Source of the DNA: Escherichia phage p000v | Length of the DNA: 64,000 nucleotides | Sequence record: NC_055781.1 | Strand: one strand, 5' to 3' | Shown here: in pieces, positions 4,697 to 49,674 of the stretch | Layout of the letters: each line of letters starts with the position of its first letter | How positions within the stretch are numbered: the stretch's first letter is position 1 | Translations under genes and position numbers: made by a program | Notes under the pieces: generated by a model | Database searches by the model: none | Seen by the model: only the letters and a program-made list of their open reading frames with translations | Told to the model about the DNA's origin: nothing

Positions 4697-4728
4697 ACAA
4701 ACTCTTGAGAGCAGAGTATAATGCTCTC
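4697..4728 (+). promoter_or_regulatory. promoter module, copy 1: AAACTCTTGAGAGCAGAG-TATAAT-GCTCTC (repeated at ~49641)
   Basis: perfect TATAAT lying in the loop of the 6-bp inverted repeat GAGAGC/GCTCTC; an identical ~30-nt sequence recurs upstream of ndd. Confidence 0.45.
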
Positions 4729-4759
4729 GTTGGATAATAAAATAACAGAGGAAAATAAT

Positions 4760-5092
4760 ATGTCTACTAAAATCAAAAACGTAGTGAACTCTTTCGCTTT
4801 CGATAAAGTTGTTAGTCTTCTAGAAAAAGGTGGTATTGTTACTCCTCAAGTTCTTGACGCGTGGGAATTCCGTCTTTATGAAATCATGCAAAAACACGAC
4901 CAGAAAATTGGACGTAATTCTATTCGTGAAATTCTAGTACAATATATTCTTTCTGAATTTGACGTTGCCGCATTTGGTGTTGAATCTAAAGCTTATCAGA
5001 AACATGAAATCTCTGAAAAAACTATCCGTCGTATGAAAAATCAACGTAAGAAAAAATTCGCTGACTTGAAAATTGTTAAGGCGGTAAAATGA
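4760..5092 (+). CDS. hypothetical protein
   Basis: ATG with AGGAAAATAAT RBS; 110 aa. Confidence 0.4.
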   Translation: MSTKIKNVVNSFAFDKVVSLLEKGGIVTPQVLDAWEFRLYEIMQKHDQKIGRNSIREILVQYILSEFDVAAFGVESKAYQKHEISEKTIRRMKNQRKKKFADLKIVKAVK

Positions 5093-5316
5093 GCATACTA
5101 ACAGAAACTTTGATTAATGATCTGCGTCTAGCTGGTTACGAAGTTGGTACAAATAGTCTAGGTCTTCCTCAGATCGAAGGTCCTGGATTTATTCTAGAAT
5201 ACGAATTCAAACAATGGTGGTTATATGCTACGGTTGACGATGCGTTGAATATTGATTTCGTTGACCAATTTGATTCATTGGATGCTGCCTTATTTGCAGC
5301 AAAGGAACTAGAATGA
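5089..5316 (+). CDS. hypothetical protein
   Basis: 75 aa, ATGA overlap with upstream gene. Confidence 0.4.
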   Translation: MSILTETLINDLRLAGYEVGTNSLGLPQIEGPGFILEYEFKQWWLYATVDDALNIDFVDQFDSLDAALFAAKELE

Positions 5317-5582
5317 AATTAACTCGAATCAGTATAACTGAAGAAAAGCTGGGCGAATTTTACGTCGACAACTTTATGAAAGTTACGTATTTTCCATTTG
5401 TTAAAGGTGTCGGTTTTTGGGAAACTCATGTATCTCAATTAAACGAAGGCGACTATAACGAAACACATGAGAACTTTTTAGATTTTCTTTATGGAGCTGG
5501 ATTAACCGAGCTTTATATTGATATACATGAGTTCAAACGTTTAATGGAAAAAGTATTCCAGGCGTATTGTTTGCTCCGATAG
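5313..5582 (+). CDS. hypothetical protein
   Basis: 89 aa, ATGA overlap with upstream gene. Confidence 0.4.
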   Translation: MKLTRISITEEKLGEFYVDNFMKVTYFPFVKGVGFWETHVSQLNEGDYNETHENFLDFLYGAGLTELYIDIHEFKRLMEKVFQAYCLLR

Positions 5583-5589
5583 TATCTCG

Positions 5590-5633
5590 TGCTTTAAGAT
5601 AGGTCTCTAAATATTATGATATAATAGACCTAT
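5590..5633 (+). promoter_or_regulatory. promoter region upstream of gene 55 (MotA-box-like TGCTTTA plus several -10-like hexamers inside an 8-bp inverted repeat)
   Basis: TGCTTTA at 5590-5596; TATTAT/TATGAT/TATAAT overlapping; inverted repeat ATAGGTCT (5599-5606) / AGACCTAT (5626-5633). Confidence 0.35.
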
Positions 5634-5654
5634 GAATTGAGCCAAGAGGTACTT

Positions 5655-6212
5655 ATGACTGAACAAAAACCTAAAAATAACTATGTGAATAATAAAGAGC
5701 TTCTCGCCGCTATAATCGAGTGGAAAAAGGAGCTCTTAAATAATAAAGACCCAAACAAAATTATTCGTCAGAATGATACCATCGGTTTAGCAATTATGCT
5801 TATCGCCGAAGGCCTGTCCAAACGTTTCAACTTTTCAGGATATACCCAGTCTTGGAAGCAGGAGATGATTGCAGATGGGATTGAAGCCTCTATTAAGGGA
5901 CTTCATAATTTCGACGAAACTAAGTACAATAACCCACATGCATACATAACTCGAGCTTGTTTTAATGCTTTTGTCCAACGTATCAAAAAAGAACGTAAGG
6001 AAGTTGCAAAGAAATATAGTTACTTCGTTCATAATGTCTACGACAGTCATGACGATGATATGGTAGCGTTGGTAGATGAAACGTTTATTCAAGACATCTA
6101 CGATAAAATGACGCATTATGAAGAATCCGCTTATAAAGCTCCTGGGGCTGAAAAGAAGGAAGTTGTTAGCGATTCGCCTAGTTTGGATTTTTTATATGAG
6201 GATGACAATTGA
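5655..6212 (+). CDS. 55: late-transcription sigma factor gp55
   Basis: 185 aa (same length as T4 gp55); ATG at 5655 after GAGG RBS; position between the nrd cluster and gene 47. Confidence 0.85.
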
Positions 6213-6411
6213 CATCTCTAACTACTTAGAAGAACCTTTTGACGAAGCAATCCCTTATTTGGTAAAACTGTTGGGTCGTGAATTTAAAATTAATTTTGAC
6301 ATCGACCCTTTGAACCCACATGACGTGTCATTTTCAATAAATGGGACTCCAGTTGAGTACGAGTTCTGTATTGAAGAGGATGGACGTTTTTATTTTAATT
6401 TAATGAGATAA
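6196..6411 (+). CDS. hypothetical protein
   Basis: ATG overlapping the 3' end of gene 55; about 71 aa. Confidence 0.35.
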
Positions 6412-6412
6412 T

Positions 6413-6736
6413 ATGACTACCGAGATTATTGAAAATAAAGAAGCAGAAGATGCAGTAGCTAAAATGCTACAAGAAATCCAAAAGAAAAATGAAGCTGAAG
6501 CACGTAAAAAATCCGAAAAGATTCTTAAAAAGAATCGTTTTGAACTAAACCGTCTTTATGCACATGCTCAAGAAGCAGCAATTCAAAACAACTTCGAAGC
6601 TTACGAATATGCTATTAAGAAATCTCGGGATATTCTACGACAACCATATAATGACAAGTTAATTAAAATCCAGTGGATTACTACTCGTCAGGCTATTGAG
6701 GACATCATTAATGGCGCTAGTTCAAACAAAGTTTAA
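6413..6736 (+). CDS. hypothetical protein (predicted helical, charged)
   Basis: 107 aa, Lys/Glu-rich. Confidence 0.4.
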   Translation: MTTEIIENKEAEDAVAKMLQEIQKKNEAEARKKSEKILKKNRFELNRLYAHAQEAAIQNNFEAYEYAIKKSRDILRQPYNDKLIKIQWITTRQAIEDIINGASSNKV

Positions 6737-6917
6737 ACGTCTGAAGCTGAACGCAGGGTTCTCTCTTAAATTGGGAGGTCCTCTTTGTGTTAAAATTTCT
6801 GAAAAGGAATATCACGACGGTTCTATTACAGAAATTTGTCCGCCTATTGTAAAGGCAGACCCAAAACAACTCGTATGGGTCGATTCATTTCAAGTTAAGA
6901 AATGGTGGAAACGATGA
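6711..6917 (+). CDS. hypothetical protein
   Basis: ATG at 6711 with GAGG about 10 nt upstream, overlaps upstream 3' end; 68 aa. Confidence 0.35.
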   Translation: MALVQTKFKRLKLNAGFSLKLGGPLCVKISEKEYHDGSITEICPPIVKADPKQLVWVDSFQVKKWWKR

Positions 6918-6956
6918 GAGAAATTGATTTAGGCATTTTCTGAGAGGTGCTTATGC

Positions 6957-7130
6957 ATGACGAACATCCCGACTTCTGAAAATTTCGATAAAATCCGTAA
7001 AGGCAAAGCAGAAAGAATGAGACGTTTTAAAGAGTCTTATGATAAAGCTAAAGCCGAAGGAACTATTACGTACAAGCCCATTCGATTTAAAAGTTCAAAT
7101 GAGCCTTTGTACGGTGTACTATGTGGATAG
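6957..7130 (+). CDS. hypothetical small protein (57 aa, below ORF-track cutoff)
   Basis: ATG after GAGAGG RBS; ends 1 nt before an intrinsic terminator. Confidence 0.3.
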   Translation: MTNIPTSENFDKIRKGKAERMRRFKESYDKAKAEGTITYKPIRFKSSNEPLYGVLCG

Positions 7131-7153
7131 GAACTCTTCGGAGTTCCTTTTTT
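7129..7153 (+). terminator. intrinsic terminator (AGGAACTC-ttcg-GAGTTCCT then TTTTT)
   Basis: 8-bp stem, UUCG tetraloop, T-run. Confidence 0.6.
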
Positions 7154-7176
7154 GCTTTATAAACGGATGATAGAAT
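7153..7176 (+). promoter_or_regulatory. MotA-dependent middle promoter upstream of gene 47
   Basis: TGCTTTA MotA box, 11-nt spacer, TAGAAT -10; 24 nt before the ATG at 7200. Confidence 0.55.
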
Positions 7177-7199
7177 GAATTAACTAATGAGGAAATAAT

Positions 7200-8219
7200 A
7201 TGAAAATTTTGCACTTAGGCGACTTCCATATCGGAGTCAAACAAGACGACCCATGGGTCCAAGATATTCAACGTGATGGTATTCGTCAAGCAATTGAATA
7301 CTCTAAGAAACACGGGATTAAAACTTGGATTCAGTACGGTGATTGGTTTGACGTCCGTAAAGCAATAACACATCGTACAATGGAATTCAATCGTGAAATC
7401 GTTGATATGATTTCTAAAGCAGGCATTCACGTTCATGTCACGATAGGAAACCATGACATGGCGTTTAAGAATACAATAACACCTAACACTGTTTCTGAAT
7501 TGTTAACTCAATTTGAAAACTTTACTATTTACGAACATCCAACTACTGTAGATTTTGACGGATGTCTGATTGATATCGTTCCGTGGATGTGTGAAGAAAA
7601 TACAGGTGAAATCTTAGAGCACATCAAGACTTCTTCTGCTGCGTATTGCGTTGGTCACTGGGAACTGAACGGCTTTTATTTCTATAAAGGAATGAAGTCT
7701 CATGGGCTTGAACCTGATTTCTTAAAGACCTATAAACAAGTCTGGTCTGGCCACTTCCACACAATCTCTGAAGCTGCTAACGTCAAATATATTGGGACAC
7801 CATGGACCCTTACTGCAGGTGACGAGAACGACCCACGTGGATTCTGGGTATTTGACACTGATGTTGAACGTATGGAATTTATTCCTAATGAAACAACATG
7901 GCATCGACGAATCACTTATCCATTTAAAGGCAAAATCAATTATTCTGATTATACTAATCTAGCCGTACGTGTTATAGTATCAGAAATTGATTCAGAGTTG
8001 ACTAAATTTGAATCTGAACTTGAAAAAGTAGTTCACTCTCTTCGTATGGTTTCTAAAGTTGATAACAGTGTTGAATCTGATGACGACCAGGAAATCGAGA
8101 TTAAATCACTTCAAGATATCATTAAAGAATATATTGACGCGATTCCAGATATCTCAGACGAAGACAGAGAAGCGCTGGTCAAATATTCCAACGAACTTTA
8201 TATTGAGGCAACACAATGA
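7200..8219 (+). CDS. 47: recombination endonuclease subunit gp47 (Mre11-like)
   Basis: 339 aa; phosphoesterase motifs LGDFH, GDWFD, GNHD. Confidence 0.9.
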   Translation: MKILHLGDFHIGVKQDDPWVQDIQRDGIRQAIEYSKKHGIKTWIQYGDWFDVRKAITHRTMEFNREIVDMISKAGIHVHVTIGNHDMAFKNTITPNTVSELLTQFENFTIYEHPTTVDFDGCLIDIVPWMCEENTGEILEHIKTSSAAYCVGHWELNGFYFYKGMKSHGLEPDFLKTYKQVWSGHFHTISEAANVKYIGTPWTLTAGDENDPRGFWVFDTDVERMEFIPNETTWHRRITYPFKGKINYSDYTNLAVRVIVSEIDSELTKFESELEKVVHSLRMVSKVDNSVESDDDQEIEIKSLQDIIKEYIDAIPDISDEDREALVKYSNELYIEATQ

Positions 8220-8473
8220 CTTTAGATGAATTTAACAATGCTGGGCTAGGGCTTGAAGTTGAAATAGACGTTAAAGATGATGATGGATTCGAGAACACTA
8301 TCAAGTATTGGATTGAGCCATTACGTGTTGAAGGCAATGAAGTTAAAGCAGTTCATGTCTACACCGACTGGGCTATTGAATTTAGCTTTAATATAATGGA
8401 CAACGATACTCCTGGCTCTATTCTTAAAATGGCTGAAGCATGTATCAAGGATGCGTATAATGACGAAGACTGA
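8216..8473 (+). CDS. hypothetical protein
   Basis: 85 aa, acidic; ATGA overlap with gene 47 stop. Confidence 0.4.
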   Translation: MTLDEFNNAGLGLEVEIDVKDDDGFENTIKYWIEPLRVEGNEVKAVHVYTDWAIEFSFNIMDNDTPGSILKMAEACIKDAYNDED

Positions 8474-8699
8474 CTATGAAATCCATCGTCACGAATTTAG
8501 TATTGGTGACGGTTATATTGGTATCGTTGAATGGACTGAGAATTACGAGGAATCAACTCCTCGTTTCTTTGGAACAATGTATGTTACCTGTGAGTACGCA
8601 CCAGGTGTTGTTATGTATGCAGAACTAGATGAATATTTTTCTGATAGGGATGACATGTTAAAATATGTAGAGGACTTCATTCGAAGAGAATACATATGA
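8451..8699 (+). CDS. hypothetical protein
   Basis: 82 aa; overlaps neighbours. Confidence 0.4.
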   Translation: MRIMTKTDYEIHRHEFSIGDGYIGIVEWTENYEESTPRFFGTMYVTCEYAPGVVMYAELDEYFSDRDDMLKYVEDFIRREYI

Positions 8700-10384
8700 A
8701 ATCATTTAAATTAAATCGTGTTCGTTATCAAAACATCATGTCGGTAGGTGGGAATCCTATTGATATCCAATTAGATAAAGTCCAAAAGACATTAATCACT
8801 GGTAAAAATGGTGGTGGTAAATCTACGATGTTAGAAGCCATTACTTTCGGACTTTTCGGTAAACCATTTCGTGATGTTAAGAAAGGACAAATCATTAATA
8901 GCACGAACAAGAAAGAGCTCTTAGTTGAGCTTTGGATGGAATTCGATGATAAAAAATACTTCATTAAACGTGGCCAAAAGCCCAATATTTTCGAAATCTC
9001 CGTTGACGGTGTTCGTCTTGATGAATCTGCCAGCAGTCGTGACTTCCAAGAAGAATTTGAACGTAGCATCGGAATGTCATACGCGTCTTTTAAACAGATC
9101 GTTGTGCTTGGGACGGCAGGGTATACCCCTTTCATGGCTCTTAGCACCCCTGCTCGTAGAAAACTTGTCGAAGACCTTTTAGAAGTCGGCACACTCGCTG
9201 AAATGGATAAAATCAATAAGTCTCAAGTTCGAGAACTTAATTCCCAGGGGCAAGTTCTCGATGCCAAGAAAGATGGTATTATCCAACAAATTAAGATTTA
9301 TAACGAGAATATCGAACGCCAAAAGAAATTATCTGGCGATAATGTAGCACGTCTACAGAATATGTATGACGACCTAGCCAAAGAAGCTCGTTCATTAAAA
9401 GCAGAAATTGAAGAAGCTAATGAGCGTCTACTTAATATCGTTCTTGACGAAGACCCTACTGAGGCATTCAACAAGATCGGACAAGAAGCATTCTTGATTA
9501 AATCTAAAATCGACTCATATAACAAAGTTATTAAGATGTATCATGACGGTGGCACATGTCCTACTTGTGCATCACAGTTGCACCAGGGTGATCCTATTGT
9601 CTCTAAGATTACCGATAAGCTTCATGAATGTAATCACTCATTCGAGCAACTTACCTGTCACAGAGATAATCTGAGTGTCCTAGTGGACGAATATAGAGCT
9701 AATGTTAAGACTAAACAGGACCTTGCATCTGATATTCGTACCAAGAAACAAGCAATGATTGCCACTATTGATAAAGCTAAGAAAGTTAAAGCTGCAATAG
9801 AACAAGCCTCGGCGGAATTTATCGACCATGCCGATGAGATAGCTTTGCTTCAAAAAGAACTTGATAAAATCATTAAAACAAAATCGGATAACGTTCTTGA
9901 AAAATACCATCGTGGTATTATAACAGATATGTTAAAAGATTCTGGTATTAAAGGTGCTATCATTAAAAAATATGTGCCTCTGTTCAACAAGCAGATTAAC
10001 CATTACCTTAAAATCATGGAAGCTGATTATGTGTTTTCTATTGACGAAGAATTCAATGAATCTATAAAATCACGTGGTCGTGAAGATTTTAGTTATGCTT
10101 CATTTAGTCAAGGTGAAAAGGCACGTATCGATATCGCATTGTTGTTTACATGGCGAGATATTGCTGAAAAAGTTTCTGGTGTTAAAATCAACACGTTGAT
10201 TCTTGATGAGGTTTTTGACGGCGCTGTAGATTCTGAAGCTGTTAAGGCTATAGATACCATTCTTGGAAGTTTACAAAATACTAACGTGTTCATTATCTCT
10301 CATCGAGACCATGACCCTCAACGTTATGGACAACATCTTCAGATGAGTAAAGTTGGACGATTTACTGTAATGACTGTTTCATAA
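8696..10384 (+). CDS. 46: recombination endonuclease subunit gp46 (Rad50/SbcC-like ATPase)
   Basis: 562 aa; Walker A GKNGGGKST, zinc-hook CPTC, C-terminal LILDEVFDG. Confidence 0.9.
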   Translation: MKSFKLNRVRYQNIMSVGGNPIDIQLDKVQKTLITGKNGGGKSTMLEAITFGLFGKPFRDVKKGQIINSTNKKELLVELWMEFDDKKYFIKRGQKPNIFEISVDGVRLDESASSRDFQEEFERSIGMSYASFKQIVVLGTAGYTPFMALSTPARRKLVEDLLEVGTLAEMDKINKSQVRELNSQGQVLDAKKDGIIQQIKIYNENIERQKKLSGDNVARLQNMYDDLAKEARSLKAEIEEANERLLNIVLDEDPTEAFNKIGQEAFLIKSKIDSYNKVIKMYHDGGTCPTCASQLHQGDPIVSKITDKLHECNHSFEQLTCHRDNLSVLVDEYRANVKTKQDLASDIRTKKQAMIATIDKAKKVKAAIEQASAEFIDHADEIALLQKELDKIIKTKSDNVLEKYHRGIITDMLKDSGIKGAIIKKYVPLFNKQINHYLKIMEADYVFSIDEEFNESIKSRGREDFSYASFSQGEKARIDIALLFTWRDIAEKVSGVKINTLILDEVFDGAVDSEAVKAIDTILGSLQNTNVFIISHRDHDPQRYGQHLQMSKVGRFTVMTVS

Positions 10385-10385
10385 A

Positions 10386-10419
10386 CGCTTTAACACGATG
10401 TGGTTATAATGACCACATC
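10386..10419 (+). promoter_or_regulatory. middle-type promoter with -10 in a hairpin loop
   Basis: CGCTTTA box, 12-nt spacer, TATAAT; TATAATG sits in the loop of the 8-bp inverted repeat GATGTGGT/ACCACATC. Confidence 0.45.
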
Positions 10420-10426
10420 AAATTAA

Positions 10427-10627: not shown

Positions 10628-10639
10628 GAGAGAAATAAT

Positions 10640-11785: not shown

Positions 11786-11790
11786 GTCAA

Positions 11791-19538: not shown

Positions 19539-20699
19539 ATGAATACTTTTAAAATCGGAACGAATTTTGATTTAGCTCTTCTTGATAAAATCGTAGAGCT
19601 CAATAAAACCTATCCTAATAGCTTGATAAACGAAGTATATGGCTCTACAAGAGAAATGGCTTTTGTAGCAGCCAGACCTGATTTTAGGCTTCCTGACGTT
19701 GACAAAAAGATGTTAGAAGACTACGTTAAACGTTGTAACGAATTAGGTATTTGCTTTAACTATACACTCAACACGATAAATCCTGGTTCAAAAAGAGAAC
19801 TAGTTGAGTGGAAGAAGAAAGCTATTCAGGATTATGTTCAGTATCTTTGGTCAATAGGCGTATGGCGTATTACTATCGCTAACCCTGTTGTTATGGAAAT
19901 TGTTCGTGAAGTCAATAAAGATATTGAGATTGAAGTTTCAACAATTCTACATGTCGATGCGGTAACTCAAATCAAATACTTACATGACCAATATAACATC
20001 AAAAAGGTCTGTTGCGGAATTCATAAGAACCGTTCAGTTTCTTTCCTGAAGCGTGCAGCAGAGTTTTGCAATAAGAACAATATAATATTTGAAGTTCTTG
20101 TAAATGAGTTCTGTTCTAATGCTGGTAAAGGGTATACAACACATTGTAGTTATCGTGACTCTTGCTATATTTTCCATAGTACTGATGTTACCGCTGATGA
20201 TGCTAAATCCTTAAATGGATATCCTATGCAGCACTGTATTAAAGCTCGTGATACAGACCCATTTAACTGGTTGAGAACTCGTTTTGTTCGTCCTCAAGAT
20301 TTGAAACTTTATAATGATATTGGTATCACTCAATTCAAAGTTTCAGGACGTACAGGTAGCACAGACTACATTTTGAAAGTTCTTGAAGCATACGCTTCTG
20401 AAAAGTTTGAAGGTAATTTGTTAGAACTGTGGAAGCCTTTAGAGACTATTTTCACTCTTGAAAATGAGACTGAGTTTTCACATACAGTAAATATTGAAAC
20501 CTCTTTGTTAGATGGCTTTTTAGAAAAAAGGTGGTTCAGACATCCAGATTTTGATTGTGCTAATGAAATCTGTGGGTCAACGTGTACATATTGTGAAAGG
20601 TATTATAAACGTCAATTATCTAAAAACGGGTTAGCAGAAAACTCCATATCTATTATTGATATAACTAACTCTGATGACGCTTTGAGGTACCCGGAATGA
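19539..20699 (+). CDS. Cys-rich protein, possible U32-family TIM-barrel/Fe-S enzyme
   Basis: 386 aa; motif order FKIGTNFD, NEVYGS, YTLNT, EVLVNEFCSNAGKGYTTHCSYRDSC resembles peptidase-U32 signatures by eye; C-terminal CANEICGSTCTYC Cys4 cluster. Confidence 0.35.
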   Translation: MNTFKIGTNFDLALLDKIVELNKTYPNSLINEVYGSTREMAFVAARPDFRLPDVDKKMLEDYVKRCNELGICFNYTLNTINPGSKRELVEWKKKAIQDYVQYLWSIGVWRITIANPVVMEIVREVNKDIEIEVSTILHVDAVTQIKYLHDQYNIKKVCCGIHKNRSVSFLKRAAEFCNKNNIIFEVLVNEFCSNAGKGYTTHCSYRDSCYIFHSTDVTADDAKSLNGYPMQHCIKARDTDPFNWLRTRFVRPQDLKLYNDIGITQFKVSGRTGSTDYILKVLEAYASEKFEGNLLELWKPLETIFTLENETEFSHTVNIETSLLDGFLEKRWFRHPDFDCANEICGSTCTYCERYYKRQLSKNGLAENSISIIDITNSDDALRYPE

Positions 20700-26230: not shown

Positions 26231-26260
26231 GTTTACATCTTCCTCTAGGCATGATATGAT
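26231..26260 (+). promoter_or_regulatory. T4-type early promoter (GTTTAC -18- TATGAT)
   Basis: consensus-like -35 and -10 upstream of ORF 26290. Confidence 0.45.
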
Positions 26261-26289
26261 GTACTTACACTAACCAAGAGGAAAACATT

Positions 26290-26664
26290 ATGAATATGTC
26301 TCAAGCAATTTTTACTGCAATCACCGAAAACACAACTGTTGAAGTAGTTTCTCCGCTGGCAACCTACGTTATTCTTGCTCCTAAATCTATTGTATCTCGT
26401 ATGGAAAACATGGGCAAACGTATCGTACAAATCGTTGGAGCCGGAAATCAAAAACTTGATTATCTGCGAACCATCAAAGCTTATGAACATTTCCAACTCG
26501 AAAAAGGTTCTCCCATCCAGGTAGAACTCGTAAATGGTGATATCGTTCGAGCAATGTTCCATCATTTCTATGCATTGAATGACCCATCTAAAGCGGTTCG
26601 TTTAATTGCATACGACGCAAACCAAAACGAAATCAACGCAGATATATCTAAATTACGTTTTTAA
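26290..26664 (+). CDS. hypothetical protein
   Basis: 124-aa ORF. Confidence 0.4.
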   Translation: MNMSQAIFTAITENTTVEVVSPLATYVILAPKSIVSRMENMGKRIVQIVGAGNQKLDYLRTIKAYEHFQLEKGSPIQVELVNGDIVRAMFHHFYALNDPSKAVRLIAYDANQNEINADISKLRF

Positions 26665-26715
26665 GTTTACTTCTCCAGTAGTTATGTTATTATAGATCTA
26701 TCAACTACTGGAGAA
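26665..26715 (+). promoter_or_regulatory. early promoter (GTTTAC -17- TATTAT) embedded in a 13-bp perfect inverted repeat
   Basis: TTCTCCAGTAGTT (26671-26683) / AACTACTGGAGAA (26703-26715); -10 in the loop; the right arm contains the GGAGAA RBS of the next gene. Confidence 0.5.
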
Positions 26716-26719
26716 CAAA

Positions 26720-27037
26720 ATGAAAACCATCGATTGTAAAGCAGAATTTAAGATTTTTTATCACGGTTCAAGTAGTTCAGCTAACATCGAAAACATGCTT
26801 TGTCCTCCTGAAGAAACAGGAGTTCTGTCTGAAACCGGACGTAAGAAAAACTTGAATCGTGTATTCTTTACTGAAGATATCGGTTTAGCAAAGATTTACG
26901 CAGGACGAGCAGCACGCTCTTATGGAGGTGAACCACGTCTCTATCGAGTAATTTCTCCGGTAGATGTAGTTCAAATGAATGATACTAAAGGTGCTACAGT
27001 TTATCATGCTGAATGGGCATTTTGCGAGGAAATATGA
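26720..27037 (+). CDS. hypothetical protein
   Basis: 105-aa ORF with RBS; no recognisable family. Confidence 0.4.
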   Translation: MKTIDCKAEFKIFYHGSSSSANIENMLCPPEETGVLSETGRKKNLNRVFFTEDIGLAKIYAGRAARSYGGEPRLYRVISPVDVVQMNDTKGATVYHAEWAFCEEI

Positions 27038-27222
27038 GCAAATTAACTAAAATTACTTTTATTGGCTGGTTTAAAAGCGGTGAGATGTTCACTAAAGATA
27101 TCATGTTATCAGGTGATCGTGAAGAAATCGAGTGGGTTGCGGTGCAACTCGCCGAAGTGAACAATGCATTAGTTAAAGCATTTATTAATGACGAGAAAGT
27201 TTTTGAAGCTGATTTTCGATAA
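27034..27222 (+). CDS. dmd: Dmd-like small protein (possible antitoxin, discriminator of mRNA degradation)
   Basis: about 62 aa from ATG at 27034 (ATGA overlap); size and position between 41 and 61 match T4 dmd; assignment from recalled family features. Confidence 0.4.
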   Translation: MSKLTKITFIGWFKSGEMFTKDIMLSGDREEIEWVAVQLAEVNNALVKAFINDEKVFEADFR

Positions 27223-27235
27223 TTTTAAAATAACT

Positions 27236-27265
27236 GTTTACAAGCACCACATACTGTGTTACTAT
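27236..27265 (+). promoter_or_regulatory. T4-type early promoter (GTTTAC -18- TACTAT)
   Basis: upstream of lipoprotein ORF 27294. Confidence 0.45.
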
Positions 27266-27293
27266 CTTTTTATCAACTACAGAGGAAATTGAA

Positions 27294-27662
27294 ATGAAAA
27301 AATTAATCGCTTTAGCAATGGTATTTGGATTAACAGGATGTGGTGCTCATGGCTTTATCCCTAATAACGTTGGCCAATTGATTTATAACCCGAATGTTAA
27401 ACAGTACAACCAACCTAAAGTTGAAGTGGAAGACCCGGTTACTGTAGGTAATCGAATGATTCAAGCTGATGCCCATGCTCAACGTTATCGTGATTCTGAT
27501 ACTGTAGCATTGTCAAAAGAACAACGCGTTAAAGAACATTGCTTACAGGCTACTGAAATCGCATTCATTCGCTATGTTGAAACAACTGGCAAAGAGCCTT
27601 CCCAGAAACAAATCGCGAATAACTACGTCCAGTGTATTGAACGTTTAAACAAATTTAATTAA
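27294..27662 (+). CDS. putative lipoprotein
   Basis: 122 aa; signal peptide with lipobox MKKLIALAMVFGLTGC. Confidence 0.5.
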   Translation: MKKLIALAMVFGLTGCGAHGFIPNNVGQLIYNPNVKQYNQPKVEVEDPVTVGNRMIQADAHAQRYRDSDTVALSKEQRVKEHCLQATEIAFIRYVETTGKEPSQKQIANNYVQCIERLNKFN

Positions 27663-27665
27663 TTG

Positions 27666-27695
27666 GTTTACACCAAAGTTAAACCAAGATACTAT
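27666..27695 (+). promoter_or_regulatory. T4-type early promoter (GTTTAC -18- TACTAT)
   Basis: upstream of ORF 27724. Confidence 0.45.
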
Positions 27696-27723
27696 AAACA
27701 TAACAAATCAAGAGGAAATTAAC

Positions 27724-27972
27724 ATGGAATTATTCGTGGCTAGTTCAGTAGCAGTTTTAATCGCAGGTATTGGTTCAATCATCATTTACATGTTGCCTTG
27801 GGTAATCGCACTTATTCGTGGCACAAAAAGCACAACAGCAATCTTCTTTGTATCTTTACTCTTTAACTGGACGATGATTGGTTGGATTGGAACTTTAATT
27901 TGGTCTATCGTTGCCGAAAAGAAATCTGCTCAGCAGACTCAACAAGTAATTATTATTCGCGAAAAAGAATAA
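27724..27972 (+). CDS. small inner-membrane protein (two predicted TM helices)
   Basis: 82 aa, two hydrophobic segments. Confidence 0.45.
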   Translation: MELFVASSVAVLIAGIGSIIIYMLPWVIALIRGTKSTTAIFFVSLLFNWTMIGWIGTLIWSIVAEKKSAQQTQQVIIIREKE

Positions 27973-27976
27973 ACTT

Positions 27977-28011
27977 GTTTACATTATAGATGGACTATAG
28001 TATAGTAGTCC
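27977..28011 (+). promoter_or_regulatory. T4-type early promoter (GTTTAC -18- TATAGT) with inverted repeat GGACTA/TAGTCC around the -10
   Basis: upstream of ORF 28036. Confidence 0.45.
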
Positions 28012-28035
28012 TATCAAATCAACTAAGGAGTTAAA

Positions 28036-33326: not shown

Positions 33327-33356
33327 AGTTTACATTCCCTCCTCTCGTGTTATGAT
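33327..33356 (+). promoter_or_regulatory. T4-type early promoter (GTTTAC -18- TATGAT)
   Basis: followed by an 18-codon micro-ORF, then a second promoter-like element before the modA-like gene. Confidence 0.4.
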
Positions 33357-33514
33357 AGGCTTATCTTTAAATGGAGGTCTATCATGACATGTCAATCTGA
33401 ACTTCAAGAACGCGAATACCTAACAAAATCATTCATTTGAAAATGTTGAATTTTTAGTGTACAAACTCTACTGACGATGATACTATACTTTTATCAACCA
33501 CAGGAGAAACCTAA

Positions 33515-37339: not shown

Positions 37340-37369
37340 GTTTACAACCAAGGATGGTTGGAGTATAAT
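37340..37369 (+). promoter_or_regulatory. early promoter (GTTTAC -18- TATAAT), duplicated at 37898
   Basis: GTTTACAACCAAGGATGGTTGGAGTATAAT. Confidence 0.5.
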
Positions 37370-38846: not shown

Positions 38847-38875
38847 GTTTACTTCTCCTCTGGTTTTGATATTAT
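38847..38875 (+). promoter_or_regulatory. early promoter (GTTTAC -17- TATTAT)
   Basis: upstream of ORF 38902. Confidence 0.45.
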
Positions 38876-38901
38876 AACCATATCAACCAGAGGAGAATAA
38901 T

Positions 38902-39426
38902 ATGTTAGTTTACCGCGTAGAACGTAGTTTTTGTACTCAACGTGAATCATTACCAGGAGTTGCTATCGAAGACGGTAAAGCCGTCAGAATTTGGGAAACC
39001 TCCTGGAATAAAGAACCTCGTTCGCCATACGGTTGGTCGGGCACCGACAACTCTGAAGAAACATGGGAGTTCCTTGATAAGCATGGAATACTCTCAGGTA
39101 ACTTCTACCATCACGGCGACAACTATAATGTACCTAATCGTCCTACAGTAAATGAAGACAAACTCCTTGAACAAAATATCTTAAGATACTATAGAATTGA
39201 GCACACATTTGAATTGAACGAAGATTGGGCTCAAGGGTTCTATTTTGGATTTGAAAGCGTTGACGCGGTTTATGCATGGTTTGATGACCAGGTGGATGTT
39301 GAACTCTTGAAAGCTAAAGGATACTACATCGCGGTCTATGAAGCACCTGATTTCATCCTCGGAAGTTGTCAATTAATGTTTAGACGTTCATTGGCAGAAC
39401 AAGTTGATTTTATTTTGCTAAAATGA
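38902..39426 (+). CDS. hypothetical protein
   Basis: 174-aa ORF with GAGGAGAATAAT RBS. Confidence 0.45.
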   Translation: MLVYRVERSFCTQRESLPGVAIEDGKAVRIWETSWNKEPRSPYGWSGTDNSEETWEFLDKHGILSGNFYHHGDNYNVPNRPTVNEDKLLEQNILRYYRIEHTFELNEDWAQGFYFGFESVDAVYAWFDDQVDVELLKAKGYYIAVYEAPDFILGSCQLMFRRSLAEQVDFILLK

Positions 39427-40728: not shown

Positions 40729-40746
40729 GGGCTTCGGCCCTTTTTG
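40728..40746 (+). terminator. intrinsic terminator (AGGGC-ttcg-GCCCT then TTTTT)
   Basis: UUCG hairpin and T-run upstream of gene 39. Confidence 0.6.
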
Positions 40747-40791
40747 CTTTAGATTTCGGATGATAGAATACCTTCATAACGAGGAGACAAC

Positions 40792-43430: not shown

Positions 43431-43451
43431 TAATTTTAATAAGGCTTAATT

Positions 43452-44552: not shown

Positions 44553-44568
44553 ATCCTGAATCGCCTGA

Positions 44569-44619
44569 GGCACTATTACACATAAGATGATAGATTATAT
44601 GGTCTTTAGTAATAGTGCC
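44569..44619 (+). repeat. 11-bp perfect inverted repeat GGCACTATTAC / GTAATAGTGCC with 29-nt AT-rich loop
   Basis: read directly; lies between the glycosyltransferase gene and the small ORF before rIIA. Confidence 0.6.
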
Positions 44620-44644
44620 CTAGGAATCTACTGAAGAGAATATT

Positions 44645-44845
44645 ATGAGAACATATAACGTGGACTTGGAACTTTTTGATAAAGCAGTGCTCCGGGAATT
44701 CCGGCTTATCCAAAGATTTTTTGATATCGAATCAGCAGAGTCCTTTAAAGAACGCTTTAAAGAAATTCGATATAAAATACAAACCGATACAGCTACTAAA
44801 GAAGAACTTCTTGAAGTAGCAGAAATTTTTAAACGTAACTTGTGA
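44645..44845 (+). CDS. hypothetical protein (rIIA.1 position)
   Basis: 66-aa ORF with GAAGAGAATATT RBS. Confidence 0.4.
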   Translation: MRTYNVDLELFDKAVLREFRLIQRFFDIESAESFKERFKEIRYKIQTDTATKEELLEVAEIFKRNL

Positions 44846-44857
44846 TGAGAGAAAAAT

Positions 44858-47071
44858 ATGATTATTGAAACGGCTAAAGAAACGATTATTGGTTCAGGCG
44901 GTAAGAGCACAGCATTCACTATTCAAGGCAATAGCAAAGTTTATAAGATTTTGTCTAATGACCTTTATACAAACAAAGAATTGGCTTGTGTACGTGAATT
45001 AATTACAAACTGTATCGATGGACAAATTCTTAACGGTTGCACTGATAAGTTTATTGTTCAGGCTCCAGGTCGTTTAGACCCACGCTTTGTAGTTCGAGAC
45101 TTTGGTCCTGGTATGAGCGATTTCACCATTAGAGGTAATGACGAAGAGCCAGGAATCTATAACTCATATTTTGCTTCAACTAAAACATCGAGTAACGATT
45201 TCATCGGTGGATTCGGACTCGGTTCTAAAGCTCCGCTAGCATATACCGATACGTTTAACCTTACGTCTTATCACAACGGTGAAGTTCGTGGTTACGTAAT
45301 CTACCAAGATGACACAGGTCCACAAATTAAGCCGACCTTCGTAGATAAGATGGGTCCTGATGACCGTACGGGTGTAGAAGTAGTTGTACCGGTTAACCCG
45401 GAAGATTTTGAAAAGTTCGCATCCGAAATTGCATATGTTATGCGTCCTCTAGGTGATATTGCAGAAGTTCGTGGTGTTAAAGATATTAAATACTTCCCGG
45501 AATTTGACGATGTATATTTGGCCAAGGAAGCTCCATGGGGTGAACGTGGTAATATCATGGCTGTTTATGGCGGTATTGTATATCCAATCGGAAGCGTTAT
45601 TAAAGAACAAACATGGATGATGACACGATGCACTACAGCTTATATTAAATTCCCTATGGGTGAACTAGATGTAGCTCCGTCTCGTGAAGCATTGTCATTT
45701 GATAAACGTACGGTAGCAAATATCCATAAACGCGTTGCAGAAATCGATGCTAAATTGTTCGCTGAAGATTCTAAGAAATGGATTGATTGTAAATACCCAC
45801 GTCATGTGTTCCGTGAAATTGATTCTCTTGGCTATACCGCTCGTAAATACATGGAAAAGGCTGGGTCTAATATTGAATCACTGAAATACTCTAAAGAACA
45901 ACTAACTTATTCTGAGTTGTACAAACGTTTTAAAATGGGGCCTGAGTGGTGTAATCTTGGTGTCGTATACGATATCGTTGAATCCCCTCGTCTTCGTCGT
46001 ATTCGTGAAAGTGGTAGCTCAACGGCAACCATTTCAATTAACAGTCTGATTGGCATTAACATTAAAAACGTTGAAATTGTTATTGACGACGTTAAGGGAC
46101 GCGTTCCATTAATGCGAGCTCTTAATTCAATTGAAATGTCTAAAGACGAGGTTAAATTAACTGGTAAAGTTCCACGCGGTTTTGGTAAAAGCGTACTATT
46201 CGTTGACCCTACAGACGAAGATGCAATGAAACTTCTGGAACGCCTTAAAGTTATCTTTGATGGCGACAACATTAACATGTACAAGACTTCAGAGCTTTTA
46301 CAAATCGTTAAGCCATGGATTGAAGTCAGGAAACGGACTAATGAGCCTCGTCCTAAATCGCCAAGTGCTCATCGATTCTTTAAGAATGAAAACGATGTTT
46401 GGGTATCAGAAGACCTCTTTATTCCGGCAAGTGAAGCAGATGAAATCCAAGGTTATGCTATAGTTCGTAATCGTTCTAATGCTGAATGTCTTGACGCAGA
46501 TAAAGGTTGGTTGAACTATGACTCCAATTTCTTGACCCGTATTGCTGATTTGTCAGGTATTAAAGAGTTCACTGTAGTTCGTCCACAGATTGCTAAGAAA
46601 GTTCGTAAACTTGGTGAAGTAGAATGTTTGTTCGAAAAATCAATTAATGACTATATTACGCTAATCGATAAAGTGGATTATGATGAGTATGTATCACCAA
46701 GTCGTAGAGCACAGCCTTATTTGAATCATATTACTCGTAATGAAGAGCTTAACTTCCTTAGTAAGTATTTTAGCTCTAAGAACAAAGAAATCAGTAAAGA
46801 CTTTGCAAAACTCTCAACAGTAAATAATCGTTGGGGATGGAATCGATTCGCAGGTGCTACTAATACAGACATGAATAAGAAGTTAGAACTGTGTGCTAAA
46901 ATTTTCGATAAGCTTAAAGATAATGCTTACGATAATGATGATAAAATGGTTATTGAATTCGAAACCAATTATCATATTGTGTCAGAATACATGGGACGAC
47001 GTGGTACTCTTTCCAAAGAACAGGTCGCTCAAATCGTTAAATTCATGAAGGCCGTGGAAGCGGCCAAATAA
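44858..47071 (+). CDS. rIIA: rIIA protein
   Basis: 737 aa; N-terminal GHKL-ATPase-like region; immediately upstream of rIIB. Confidence 0.9.
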   Translation: MIIETAKETIIGSGGKSTAFTIQGNSKVYKILSNDLYTNKELACVRELITNCIDGQILNGCTDKFIVQAPGRLDPRFVVRDFGPGMSDFTIRGNDEEPGIYNSYFASTKTSSNDFIGGFGLGSKAPLAYTDTFNLTSYHNGEVRGYVIYQDDTGPQIKPTFVDKMGPDDRTGVEVVVPVNPEDFEKFASEIAYVMRPLGDIAEVRGVKDIKYFPEFDDVYLAKEAPWGERGNIMAVYGGIVYPIGSVIKEQTWMMTRCTTAYIKFPMGELDVAPSREALSFDKRTVANIHKRVAEIDAKLFAEDSKKWIDCKYPRHVFREIDSLGYTARKYMEKAGSNIESLKYSKEQLTYSELYKRFKMGPEWCNLGVVYDIVESPRLRRIRESGSSTATISINSLIGINIKNVEIVIDDVKGRVPLMRALNSIEMSKDEVKLTGKVPRGFGKSVLFVDPTDEDAMKLLERLKVIFDGDNINMYKTSELLQIVKPWIEVRKRTNEPRPKSPSAHRFFKNENDVWVSEDLFIPASEADEIQGYAIVRNRSNAECLDADKGWLNYDSNFLTRIADLSGIKEFTVVRPQIAKKVRKLGEVECLFEKSINDYITLIDKVDYDEYVSPSRRAQPYLNHITRNEELNFLSKYFSSKNKEISKDFAKLSTVNNRWGWNRFAGATNTDMNKKLELCAKIFDKLKDNAYDNDDKMVIEFETNYHIVSEYMGRRGTLSKEQVAQIVKFMKAVEAAK

Positions 47072-47080
47072 GGAAACATT

Positions 47081-48028
47081 ATGTACAATATCAAATGCTT
47101 GTCCCAAGAAGAACAGTTAGAAGCTTACGGCCTGGTTGAATCAGGCAAATGGACTCGTAAAGAAATTGCCGATTACTTCGACATTTCAACAGATACTCTT
47201 CGTAAGATTGTTAAGAATTTTAAAGCAGAAGGCGTTGTCCCTGAAGCAAACGATGCCTCTTATGTAATCGAAGAAGTTCCAGAAAATGATGAACCTATTA
47301 TCGGCGGACATCGTCCTGAAATCGTATGGAACGCGTCATCTAAATTTATTTCAATTATTGAAGGACGCGTAGCATACAATGCGACCCCATCAAGTCATGC
47401 AAATTTTGAAGAAATTAAAGCTAATCTGGTCGCAGGAAACCTTAGTAAAGCTGTCGAACTTATTAACATCAAGAAAGCTATTAGTAAGTTTGTTGACGGT
47501 AATGTTGTTATTGAAGGTGGTAGTTTATTTTATCAAGGTATAGAGATTCGTTCTGGCCTGGTTAATCGTATTATTGATTCCATGGAAAAAGGCGAAGACT
47601 TTAAATTCTATCTGCCGTTCCTTGAAAACCTGTTAGAAAACCCAAGCGAAAAAGCTGTACAACGTTTATTCGACTTCTTGGTTGCAAACGATATTGAAAT
47701 CACTGAAGATGGGTATTTCTATGCGTGGAAAGTAGTTCGTAAGGACTATTTAGACTGCTATAGTGGTACATTTGATAACTCCCCAGGTAAAGTTGTTTCA
47801 ATGCCTCGTACTCGAGTTAACGACGATGATACTCAAACCTGTTCTCGCGGTCTCCACGTTTGTGCTAAATCTTATATTCGCCACTTTGGTTCAAGCTCAG
47901 ATAAAGTTGTGAAAGTTAAAGTTCATCCACGTGATGTTGTATCCATCCCGGTTGACTACGGTGATGCTAAGATGCGTACTTGTCGTTATGAAGTAATTTC
48001 AGACGTTACTGAATTATTTGCAGAATAA
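47081..48028 (+). CDS. rIIB: rIIB protein
   Basis: 315 aa; N-terminus MYNIKCL and C-terminal region match T4 rIIB as recalled. Confidence 0.85.
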   Translation: MYNIKCLSQEEQLEAYGLVESGKWTRKEIADYFDISTDTLRKIVKNFKAEGVVPEANDASYVIEEVPENDEPIIGGHRPEIVWNASSKFISIIEGRVAYNATPSSHANFEEIKANLVAGNLSKAVELINIKKAISKFVDGNVVIEGGSLFYQGIEIRSGLVNRIIDSMEKGEDFKFYLPFLENLLENPSEKAVQRLFDFLVANDIEITEDGYFYAWKVVRKDYLDCYSGTFDNSPGKVVSMPRTRVNDDDTQTCSRGLHVCAKSYIRHFGSSSDKVVKVKVHPRDVVSIPVDYGDAKMRTCRYEVISDVTELFAE

Positions 48029-48033
48029 TAATT

Positions 48034-48056
48034 GGGGACTTCGGTCCCCTTTTTTT
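48034..48056 (+). terminator. intrinsic terminator (GGGGAC-ttcg-GTCCCC then TTTTTTT)
   Basis: strong UUCG hairpin and T-run after rIIB. Confidence 0.65.
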
Positions 48057-48070
48057 CTTTAGGGGTAATT

Positions 48071-48358
48071 ATGATTCATCCATTTGACGTATCAGAATCC
48101 AAAATTGCTAATCTTCGTGGTCATCATAAGTGTAAATCAGTTTATTGTGCTAAATTGGTAAAACATCCTGGTGATGCACACTACGGCTGGTTAGAATGCG
48201 ACGAAGTTGTTATTGAAATCCCGCCTGTAGATGCAGAATATCTTGAAGAAGGAGACCGCATTTATTTTGGCGAACTACACATCAGAGGTATCTATGGTAA
48301 AGACGAACTTGGGACTGTTGAGGCTGAAGAATCTTCCGACATTTATCCTGTCGAATGA
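48071..48358 (+). CDS. hypothetical protein
   Basis: 95 aa from ATG after AGGGGTAATT RBS; ORF-track start 48032 lies inside the terminator. Confidence 0.4.
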   Translation: MIHPFDVSESKIANLRGHHKCKSVYCAKLVKHPGDAHYGWLECDEVVIEIPPVDAEYLEEGDRIYFGELHIRGIYGKDELGTVEAEESSDIYPVE

Positions 48359-48374
48359 GTTTTTGACTAGCGAA

Positions 48375-48851
48375 ATGAAGGTTAAGATCGCTGATACTGC
48401 TCGGTACTCGTTGAAACAAGATCCAGGTCAAATAAAAGAAGACGTTGTTCGACGTTGTAAGGTTGCAGTCTTTGCAGAGTATGTAGTAGCAAATTGGCTA
48501 GACGGATATGTTAATAAAGGTAATGAAGACGTAGAAGACCCGTACACGTATGCATGGGACGTTTTAGCTCATCCTAAGTACTGTGGTCTACGCATAGAAG
48601 TAAAGACCCATCAGATGGATTCGAAATGGATTTCGGTTACCACAGGATACAGTGGTGATTATCCGGGTGGTAACGGAATCAACATAGGGCCCTTCTTGAA
48701 CCATCGAGTCGCTGACTGTATTATTATATTGAATGTCAAAGAAACCTCACCTGACGTCTTCTCTTATTCTATAAAGTTCGTGGGAGACCATGAAGACCTA
48801 AAGAAAATCGTCCGCAAGAGCAACTACAACGGATGGTATCTTCATCTTTAA
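48375..48851 (+). CDS. hypothetical protein, possible PD-(D/E)xK nuclease (T4 denB position)
   Basis: about 158 aa from internal ATG; AWDVLAH...RIEVKTH resembles a D...E-x-K nuclease core. Confidence 0.3.
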   Translation: MKVKIADTARYSLKQDPGQIKEDVVRRCKVAVFAEYVVANWLDGYVNKGNEDVEDPYTYAWDVLAHPKYCGLRIEVKTHQMDSKWISVTTGYSGDYPGGNGINIGPFLNHRVADCIIILNVKETSPDVFSYSIKFVGDHEDLKKIVRKSNYNGWYLHL

Positions 48852-48863
48852 TTTCATAAAAGT

Positions 48864-48900
48864 GTTTACAACTAAGTAGGACTATGATATAGTAGTCCTA
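48864..48900 (+). promoter_or_regulatory. early promoter (GTTTAC -18- TATAGT) with inverted repeat TAGGACTA/TAGTCCTA
   Basis: upstream of ORF 48920. Confidence 0.45.
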
Positions 48901-48919
48901 TCTAAAAGAGGATAACATC

Positions 48920-49183
48920 ATGAAATTTAAATTTTTCTACGCAAAACATAAAGTAACAGGCGAATTTGTTTCAATGTACAACACTGCAGATGACGAAGGG
49001 ATGATTTATACCCATTTGGGTCTATCTCATTGGGACTCGGACGTGCCTTATATGTCATCTGAAGCCGAAATAACTCGTTTAGTTAACGGACATATGAACG
49101 ACCATTTTGGTGTTATTCTTTCTAAAGACCTTAAAGAGGTTATCAACAAAGGATATATGGAACTCGCGGAAGTTGAGATATGA
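48920..49183 (+). CDS. hypothetical protein
   Basis: 87-aa ORF with AAGAGGATAACATC RBS. Confidence 0.4.
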   Translation: MKFKFFYAKHKVTGEFVSMYNTADDEGMIYTHLGLSHWDSDVPYMSSEAEITRLVNGHMNDHFGVILSKDLKEVINKGYMELAEVEI

Positions 49184-49266
49184 GCTCTAAAATGTGGATC
49201 GGAATATGGTTGCTTAGTATCCCAATGATTTGTATAATATTTTCAATTGTGTTGAGGTACTTATGA
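49180..49266 (+). CDS. micro-ORF, hydrophobic peptide (28 aa)
   Basis: MSSKMWIGIWLLSIPMICIIFSIVLRYL; ATGA overlap with upstream stop. Confidence 0.25.
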   Translation: MSSKMWIGIWLLSIPMICIIFSIVLRYL

Positions 49267-49373
49267 AAAATGCACTTCTTATTGTACTAAGAACAATTTG
49301 TGATACGGGTTTTTACATTGCATGTTCGTTCACTGGAACATGGTTGGCTTTAACATATTTTAATGTAATTTAA
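49263..49373 (+). CDS. micro-ORF, hydrophobic peptide (36 aa)
   Basis: MKNALLIVLRTICDTGFYIACSFTGTWLALTYFNVI; ATGA overlap with the previous micro-ORF. Confidence 0.25.
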   Translation: MKNALLIVLRTICDTGFYIACSFTGTWLALTYFNVI

Positions 49374-49375
49374 TT

Positions 49376-49415
49376 GTTTACAACACAGTAGGATTATGGT
49401 ATAGTAGTCCTACTG
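49376..49415 (+). promoter_or_regulatory. early promoter (GTTTAC -18- TATAGT) with inverted repeat CAGTAGGA/TCCTACTG
   Basis: upstream of ORF 49435. Confidence 0.45.
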
Positions 49416-49434
49416 AAACATGAGGAATACAAAA

Positions 49435-49635
49435 ATGGCTAAGCTTTTTAAAGATGTTGAAATTGGTGAAAAATTCGTCCTGAATAATGGACAGCAGCTT
49501 ATTCGTGTAGCTTCTATAGCCGGACAAACTCATAACTGTATCGCCCCAACGTGTTGGACTCGATTCTTTATTGAAGATGACACTGAATGTTTAACTGTTG
49601 AAGAGCTTTTTGAACGTTCTGATATAGCCGAATAA
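49435..49635 (+). CDS. hypothetical protein
   Basis: 66 aa from ATG after GAGGAATACAAAA RBS. Confidence 0.4.
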   Translation: MAKLFKDVEIGEKFVLNNGQQLIRVASIAGQTHNCIAPTCWTRFFIEDDTECLTVEELFERSDIAE

Positions 49636-49637
49636 AA

Positions 49638-49674
49638 TTGTACAAACTCTTGAGAGCAGAGTATAATGCTCTCA
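49638..49674 (+). promoter_or_regulatory. promoter module, copy 2: TTGTAC -18- TATAAT inside GAGAGC/GCTCTC inverted repeat
   Basis: about 30 nt identical to 4697..4728; upstream of ndd. Confidence 0.45.

Follow-up and report, generated by a model that had tools for sequence, protein, structure and literature searches.

Why should the -10 hexamer of a phage promoter sit inside an inverted repeat? In a 64,000-nt stretch of the genome of Escherichia phage p000v (NC_055781.1; the whole stretch is the window below), the initial annotation described at least nine early or middle promoters of this kind, and saw in them either a way of coupling translation to promoter choice or, alternatively, operators or RNA-processing sites. 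The nine repeats that it lists are all there, their arms perfect over 6-13 bp, and each flanks a TAnnnT hexamer, mostly 16-17 nt after a GTTTAC-type -35 and ~25-40 nt before a Shine-Dalgarno (SD) sequence and ATG. At 5599, 10397, 26671 and 49386 the loop holds the entire hexamer; at the remaining five, the last 1-2 bases of the hexamer already open the 3' arm. Judged by their sequences, these repeats are the published PeSL and PmSL cassettes of T4-like phages, an identity that the annotation did not recognise, although it described the architecture. We consider it probable that they are composite elements in which the unconstrained positions of a promoter have become complementary, that the hairpin acts in RNA read through from upstream, and that in a subset it gates the ribosome-binding site (RBS).

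The window comes from an RB69-like (genus Mosigvirus) T4-type phage; identity is 97-98% to many Escherichia phages of that genus but falls to 67-78% for T4. Early and middle genes lie on the + strand, as do all elements discussed here.

The repeats exceed chance. A generic promoter scanner gave no enrichment over shuffles in the window, so we adopted a stricter T4-type definition that requires a downstream SD-ATG, which yields 22 early/middle promoters. A perfect repeat of at least 7 bp spans the -10 in 11 of these 22, and one of at least 8 bp in 7. We used two nulls, one permuting alignment columns among promoters, which keeps the consensus and breaks correlation within each promoter, and one shuffling the flanks: they predict 1.2 and 1.4 promoters, respectively, with at least 7 bp, and 0.3 and 0.4 with at least 8 bp, and 0 of 2000 shuffles matched the observed 11 or 7 (P<0.0005). 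The column permutation rules out that the palindromes are a by-product of a palindromic promoter consensus. The corresponding share, at 7 bp or more, is 6.5% for the 445 other TATAAT-like hexamers of the window. Predicted RNA folds of the nine sites range from -9.5 to -17.8 kcal/mol (z -2.4 to -4.6 versus dinucleotide shuffles), and promoter hairpins overall from -8 to -24 kcal/mol (z -2.4 to -5.3).

The architecture is general among T4-like phages. We took comparison loci around gp41, rIIB and gp47 from 86 viral contigs, whose gp41 is 61-99% identical to that of the window. The gp41 set, 46 diverse loci with 199 distinct promoters, has at least 7 bp in 24% of promoters versus 6.3% in shuffles, and at least 10 bp in 10% versus 0.2%. 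Three geometries recur. In class I the arms occupy the spacer and the discriminator/start region, with TGn and the -10 in the loop; in class II an anti-SD directly after the -35 pairs with the SD as 3' arm; in class III TGn and the -10 make up the 5' arm, and the 3' arm spans the start codon. T4 itself shows all three: examples are a 10-bp repeat at the dmd promoter near 20576, the motB promoter near 7179, Pe133295, and the motB.2 promoter, which may be the well-studied P8.1 and in which the SD forms the 3' arm of a ~17-bp hairpin (-27 kcal/mol). No promoter features are annotated in the GenBank record of T4, and promoter names can be checked only through its note on Pe133295.

Class I repeats share a dyad axis fixed at -11.5, between -12 and -11 (for example 48877-48900). 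Across 230 promoter families, 22 have at least 6 bp about this axis, versus 0-6 about any other axis from -20 to +5.5. It is the axis that arises when all unconstrained positions are used right up to TGn (-15 to -13) and T(-7). It is also the exact site at which promoter melting nucleates, as might be expected if the repeat worked in DNA, with a cruciform or hairpin that puts the -10 in a loop and modulates opening or shut-off, or serves as a recombination signal. Such a role would suit the proposal of PeSLs as recombination sites, for which mini-circles were detected (PMC2839356), and the fact that the mechanism of T4 early-promoter shut-off is still unknown (PMC2988021, PMC3014915). We nevertheless rate a DNA-level structure as very improbable: the axis also arises from the use of all unconstrained positions, many promoters are built differently, some with SD pairing, in ways that are sensible only in RNA, the mismatch bias described below indicates one strand, and arms of 6-8 bp with 8-nt loops form cruciforms poorly. 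A specific version, in which the repeat centred at -12/-11 acts as DNA on the sigma-70 holoenzyme, for example as a supercoil-dependent hairpin that displays the non-template strand of the -10, we would give hardly any credence; if true, it could add to the exceptional strength of T4-type early promoters, or to their abrupt shut-off when topology or protein coating changes.

We favor instead an origin in promoter constraint and an action in RNA. The elements would be strong sigma-70 early promoters, together with a few MotA-type middle promoters, in which the positions that RNA polymerase does not fix (spacer, ~-27 to -16; discriminator and start, ~-7 to +4) evolved mutual complementarity while the fixed TGnTATAAT stayed in the loop. 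We placed start sites 12 nt downstream of the first hexamer base, a rule that gives exactly the GenBank name Pe133295. The predicted start falls inside or just after the 3' arm, and the 5' arm lies upstream of it, so that a hairpin-bearing transcript must originate upstream, and a locally begun transcript would never contain the 5' arm. RNA from the local +1 is predicted to be unstructured (z about 0); the hairpin would form only in upstream read-through RNA.

Comparison of orthologous promoters shows arms that change together. At the promoter of sp (spackle), the arms read GGACTA/TAGTCC, GGTCTAT/ATAGACC, GGGATAAT/ATTATCCC and AAGGCCAT/ATGGCCTT in different lineages, with 2 further G.U variants, and the sp promoter of the T4 lineage has no stem. 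The ndd promoter has GAGAGCA and its partner in the window, and GAGGACA/TGTCCTC, GAGAATCA/TGGTTCTC or GAGGGT/GCCCTC in orthologues. At the promoter of ORF-4760, one relative (L071) has GAGAGA/TCTCTC and another (L075) GGGACCA/TGGTCC, and a 95%-identical relative carries a C:G to A:T double change. The arms GAGAGCA/TGCTCTC of the window and GGGACCA/TGGTCCC of T4 lie in a common flanking context, AAACTCTT...GAGTATAA; the flanks of the T4 motB promoter are likewise those of the cassettes at 4697 and 49642, with different but compensated arms. It is structure and not sequence that is kept at the sp, ndd, orf4760 and orf38902 promoters. RNAalifold returned no structure from a MAFFT alignment of the orthologous sp promoters, because the arms are out of register between lineages, and in a second alignment, of class II paralogues, 4/9 rows are in register; for this reason we give compensatory arms directly, with scripted counts, instead of alignment-based pair counts.

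The same variation bears on the operator alternative raised in the initial annotation. A dimeric phage repressor would then bind the palindromes and turn off early promoters. The palindromes do overlap the -10, and the early shut-off factor is unknown. A common operator is excluded, however, because orthologous promoters keep complementarity with different arms, to the point of fully swapped sequences. There is no shared half-site (compare GAGAGCA, GATGTGGT, GGTCTAT, TAGGACTA, CAGTAGGA and TTCTCCAGTAGTT) and no fixed spacing, which varies from 6 to 19 nt; the repeat occurs in only about half of promoters, and G:T wobble is tolerated, with a strand asymmetry. Operators therefore have next to no chance of being the explanation.

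The asymmetry emerges from single interior mismatches with base pairs on both sides. In distinct sequences we counted 25 G:T, 1 A:C and 12 other mismatches, and after grouping into 26 promoter families 15, 1 and 10; chance repeats elsewhere in the same sequences, taken as control, give a G:T to A:C ratio of 41:18. The excess of G:T over A:C lends moderate support to selection on the + strand transcript, that is, on an RNA hairpin of the early strand.

This excess also bears on whether the repeats do anything at all. They might be functionless, made and kept perfect by templated quasi-palindrome mutation, which occurs in T4, together with cassette duplication and recombination. No dispersed direct repeats in the window are larger than the promoter cassettes, and hairpin loops have been inverted: the hairpin upstream of ndd reads GGCCGCGTGTATTCATGCGGCC at one locus (L055) and GGCCGCATGAATACGCGGCC at another (L054), and according to the GenBank T4 entry the Pe133295 loop (133300-133313) is the inverted complement of the previously reported sequence, which suggests template-switch inversion at these hairpins. 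We find a functionless origin decidedly unlikely, as the excess of repeats survives nulls that keep the consensus, clusters either about a single dyad axis or at the initiation region of the same promoter, and persists with differing sequences in lineages whose gp41 is ~61-85% identical to that of the window; nor is an excess of G:T over A:C expected of neutral decay.

A role in translation would follow where the 3' arm is the initiation region itself. The initial annotation had placed an RBS in the right arm at 26671, correctly: 26703-26715 contains GGAG (26710-26713), 6 nt before ATG 26720. This class II element (26666-26722) comprises a -35 TTTACT (26666), a -10 TATTAT (26688-26693) and 13-bp arms, 26671-26683 (anti-SD TTCTCC...) and 26703-26715; the hairpin has -17.8 kcal/mol and z -3.4, versus z -0.3 for the local transcript, and the open reading frame (ORF) from ATG 26720 overlaps the start of dmd. 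The window holds an unlisted twin at 38848-38904, again with -35 TTTACT, in which 13-bp arms (38853-38865/38885-38897; -23.9 kcal/mol, z -5.3) enclose the SD GAGGAG (38890-38895) in the 3' arm ahead of ATG 38902, and whose downstream gene is a homologue of T4 motB.2. Weaker elements are an imperfect class II stem at 3281-3323, whose arms TCCTCAATAG and CTATAGAGGA (the SD) flank the -10 TAAGAT (z -2.75); a class II stem formed by TTCCTCT (26240-26246) and the SD AGAGGAA (26277-26283), with the -10 of the promoter that follows gene 41 between them; and a class III element at 33352-33385, in which the -10 region ATGATAG pairs with CTATCAT, overlapping ATG 33384.

The predicted probability that the SD is unpaired falls from 0.68 in local RNA to 0.02 in read-through RNA at 26671, from 0.71 to 0.00 at 38853 and from 0.75 to 0.17 at 3281; for the segment from SD to AUG at 33352 it falls from 0.46 to 0.02. 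Genes behind these elements would thus be translated from their own immediate-early transcript and silent on read-through. Early transcripts that run on through downstream genes are an established source of T4 middle RNA (PMC2988021), and we found no + strand terminator-like site between upstream promoters and 26671 or 38853, so read-through appears possible at both of these strong sites. At all loci taken together, promoters are complementary to their own initiation region over at least 7 bp in 13.1% of cases, versus 3.9% when matched with the initiation regions of other promoters, and over at least 8 bp in 10.3% versus 1.4%. These form 17 independent families, and by this estimate roughly one-eighth of promoter families would pair the promoter with the RBS of its own gene. 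In every orf38902 homologue found, T4 motB.2 included, a predicted hairpin with its 5' arm inside the promoter sequesters the initiation region, through differing sequences and even differing geometries, and most orf26720 homologues keep the anti-SD TCTCC directly after the -35.

We conclude that, for the subset pairing with the RBS, translation governed by promoter choice is well supported in silico. The broader form of this idea in the initial annotation holds, on computational and comparative evidence, only where the 3' arm is the initiation region (26671 and 38853, more weakly 3281, 26240 and 33352); at 8 of its 9 sites the RBS argument fails, the hairpins ending 8-25 nt before the SD. If the pairing works as predicted, some genes would be translated only in the first minutes of infection despite later read-through, candidates being the dmd operon of this phage and motB.2 of T4, and transcript abundance from RNA-seq would overstate the expression of such genes.

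The tight class I hairpins lie off the RBS. They would likewise act on read-through RNA, likely as insulators or attenuators or by protecting the upstream message at its 3' end, or perhaps by removing a single-stranded standby site before the SD. The PeSL authors proposed that such stem-loops are terminators or attenuators for polymerase arriving from upstream, and showed that inserting an RB49 PeSL stem-loop between promoter and lacZ cut expression about as much as rrnB T1 (PMC2839356). The tight hairpins, at -8 to -16 kcal/mol, are on a par with the canonical terminators of the window at -7.5 to -10.8 kcal/mol, and promoters that follow a canonical terminator tend, not significantly, to be without an embedded hairpin. 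However, the RB49 stem tested was of a GC-rich G4...C4 type, unlike the AT-rich stems here, and termination leaves unexplained why the 3' arm is the SD or AUG in 17 families. The real terminators of the window all have a UUCG loop and a T-run; after the promoter stems there is no U-tract, the 8 nt that follow having 0-4 T and mostly 1-3, and on this ground we rejected the canonical intrinsic terminator, with its GC-rich stem, short loop and U-tract, for every hairpin. As a general explanation, termination or attenuation therefore seems unlikely to us.

Several points weigh against a hairpin acting in read-through RNA. All folding here is prediction. The G:T bias is only moderately significant, with P ~0.02 against the control ratio and ~5e-4 against a composition-based ratio, and class I helices, which have a like tendency, are not significant alone against the control ratio. 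A role in DNA would suit the marked sharpness of the dyad axis as well. The element is not obligatory, as about one-third of promoters are without a hairpin. The tight class I hairpins have no U-tracts, and the depletion of embedded hairpins expected behind canonical terminators shows only as a non-significant trend (25% versus 35% of families, P = 0.37). We infer, with these points in mind, that the hairpins form in vivo and have the roles proposed.

The remaining sites fill out the catalogue. Two class I hairpins are paralogues: GAGAGCA-GAGTATAA-TGCTCTC (4707-4713/4722-4728, 7 bp; -12.6 kcal/mol, z -2.4), with -10 TATAAT at 4717-4722 and a poor -35 (CGCACA), upstream of the ORF starting at 4760; and the ndd promoter, TGAGAGCA-GAGTATAA-TGCTCTCA (49651-49658/49667-49674), whose 8 bp are one pair more than first annotated. 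The sp promoter is GGACTA-TAGTATAG-TAGTCC (27992-27997/28006-28011, 6 bp), and the cef promoter GGTCTAT-GATACT-ATAGACC (39441-39447/39454-39460, 7 bp, z -3.2). Further class I stems of 8 bp are TAGGACTA-TGATATAG-TAGTCCTA (48877-48884/48893-48900), upstream of a small ORF at 48920 and the reference copy of dispersed repeat family D1, and CAGTAGGA...TCCTACTG (49386-49393/49408-49415), upstream of the ORF starting at 49435, which extends to 12 bp if one G.U pair is allowed (-16.8 kcal/mol, z -4.3). Upstream of gene 55 (late sigma factor, phrog_234), ATAGGTCT/AGACCTAT (5599-5606/5626-5633, 8 bp, z -3.1) encloses a 19-nt loop with TGATATAAT; this promoter has no -35 and depends on an extended -10, and its hairpin is kept in L071 and L075.

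One listed site looks like a MotA-box middle promoter in its sequence. The PmSL hairpin GATGTGGT-TATAATG-ACCACATC (10397-10404/10412-10419, 8 bp, z -4.6) follows a MotA-box-like ACGCTTTAA (10385-10393), from which TATAAT (10405-10410) is separated by 11 nt; the box has C in place of a T of the consensus TGCTTtA. In addition to the twin at 38853-38897 and the element at 26240-26283, the initial annotation lacked a class I hairpin AGTATGA/TCATACT at 3992-4017, with a consensus TTTACA-N17-TATAAT promoter within it, and an 11-bp perfect repeat GGCACTATTAC/GTAATAGTGCC at 44569-44619 (-27 kcal/mol), upstream of rIIA.1/rIIA, whose 29-nt loop contains a middle-promoter-like -10 (GATGATAGATT). A nearly identical -10 motif, GATGATAGAAT, is found at the middle promoters at ~7160 and ~40760. 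There, at 7137-7170 and 40733-40765, the T-run of a UUCG-loop terminator passes straight into the MotA box (TTTTTGCTTTA), followed by GGATGATAGAAT, so that terminator and middle promoter have bases in common. Weaker or differently placed stems comprise those at 3281 and 33352 and two of another PeSL subclass, TTGGTTTA/TAAACCAA at 27663-27687, overlapping the -35 of the imm promoter, and 37345-37360. An intergenic 11-bp perfect repeat with a 7-nt loop, TGGTAGGAAGA/TCTTCCTACCA (4409-4437), has no convincing promoter and could represent either the decayed remnant of a PeSL or an ordinary hairpin between cistrons.

The + strand of the window has blocks in T4 order (47, 46, 45, 44, 62, regA, 43; uvsX, 41, sp, 61, 56; dda, dexA, 39, rIIA, rIIB, ndd, 52, motA), and tail-fibre genes lie on the - strand from ~54.8 kb. 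Proteins downstream of hairpin promoters belong mostly to PHROGs of unknown function, and an Rfam scan of the window at gathering thresholds gave no match. Between genes 41 and sp, five early promoters crowd into 1.8 kb (26232-28035), each with a small ORF behind it: in order, two of unknown function, imm.1, imm and sp. The imm and imm.1 genes thus stand between genes 41 and 61, whereas in T4 they stand beside gene 43, a rearrangement with promoter cassettes at its borders.

How do these elements compare with known systems? PeSLs were defined by Arbiol et al. 2010 in RB49/phi1 as strong sigma-70 promoters with a stem-loop, mostly between -35 and -10 or overlapping the -10, with G-T pairs in the stems, and were proposed as recombination cassettes (PMC2839356). 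For the T4/PST group, Comeau, Arbiol & Krisch 2014 give the promoter as TTTACW-N17-TAYWAT, describe weaker, AT-rich T-even stems, often with an AGNA...TCNT motif that they call variable, and add PmSLs on middle promoters (PMC4122927). Nolan et al. 2006 predicted 57 RB69 early promoters and noted no stems (PMC1524935). Translation is not mentioned in PMC2839356, by term search, or in the part of PMC4122927 consulted, and no map of T4 start sites or 3' ends bearing on these hairpins turned up in a literature search.

The elements of the window agree with PeSLs in the intergenic layout of AT-rich region, -35, -10, SD and ATG. The promoters are of sigma-70 early type (GTTTAC-N16/17-TAnnnT) with SD-ATG within ~30 nt, a stable stem-loop lies within or overlaps them, the sites at 27663 and 37345 representing other subclasses, and copies are dispersed by small ORFs in plastic regions (families D1-D3 and D8). 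Family D8 consists of cassettes 4697-4742 and 49642-49687, which share 32 identical nt 45 kb apart, upstream of ORF 4760 and ndd. The AGNA-loop-TCNT motif is present at 48877 and 49386 (AGGA...TCCT; TAGGACTA/TAGTCCTA at 48877), with similar stems at 27992, 39441 and 5599, and absent at 4707, 10397, 26671 and 49651. The site at 10397 has the MotA box, the -10 at 11 nt from it and the stem-loop of a PmSL, which is defined by a box at ~-30 and a distance of 11-13 nt. Differences remain: PeSLs have not been catalogued for RB69-like phages, their published function is as terminator/attenuator and recombination site, and here, in a defined subset, the promoter is complementary to the SD or AUG of its gene, and no stem has a U-tract. 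The architecture, then, is not new, and the PeSL/PmSL cassette is now seen in an RB69-like genome; what we add is evidence that selection acts on the stems as early-strand RNA, and a sizeable subclass predicted to gate translation by promoter choice.

Other systems share single features. The promoters of the phage N4 virion RNA polymerase also contain small inverted repeats, extruded as DNA hairpins with 3-nt loops and read by the phage polymerase; here the reader is the host sigma-70 holoenzyme, the loops are larger and the evidence favors RNA. Intrinsic terminators are likewise stable intergenic hairpins on the transcribed strand, with U-tracts that are missing here; the window's promoter stems have loops of 6-19 nt holding the -10, not UUCG tetraloops. 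Closest in logic are T4 e, soc, 49 and I-TevI, in which SD and AUG are held in a helix on long read-through RNA, and a promoter in the DNA for the 5' strand gives a shorter, translatable RNA (PMC3014915). At 26671, 38853, 3281 and 33352 the SD and/or AUG is likewise predicted to be paired in the long transcript, the promoter lies inside the structure, and the short transcript is without the 5' strand. The internal promoter of the T4 genes is late (gp55), and early translation is prevented; here it has a sigma-70 -35 and -10, and the predicted effect is reversed, with translation confined to the gene's own early transcripts. The elements of the window work like this family without being strict members of it.

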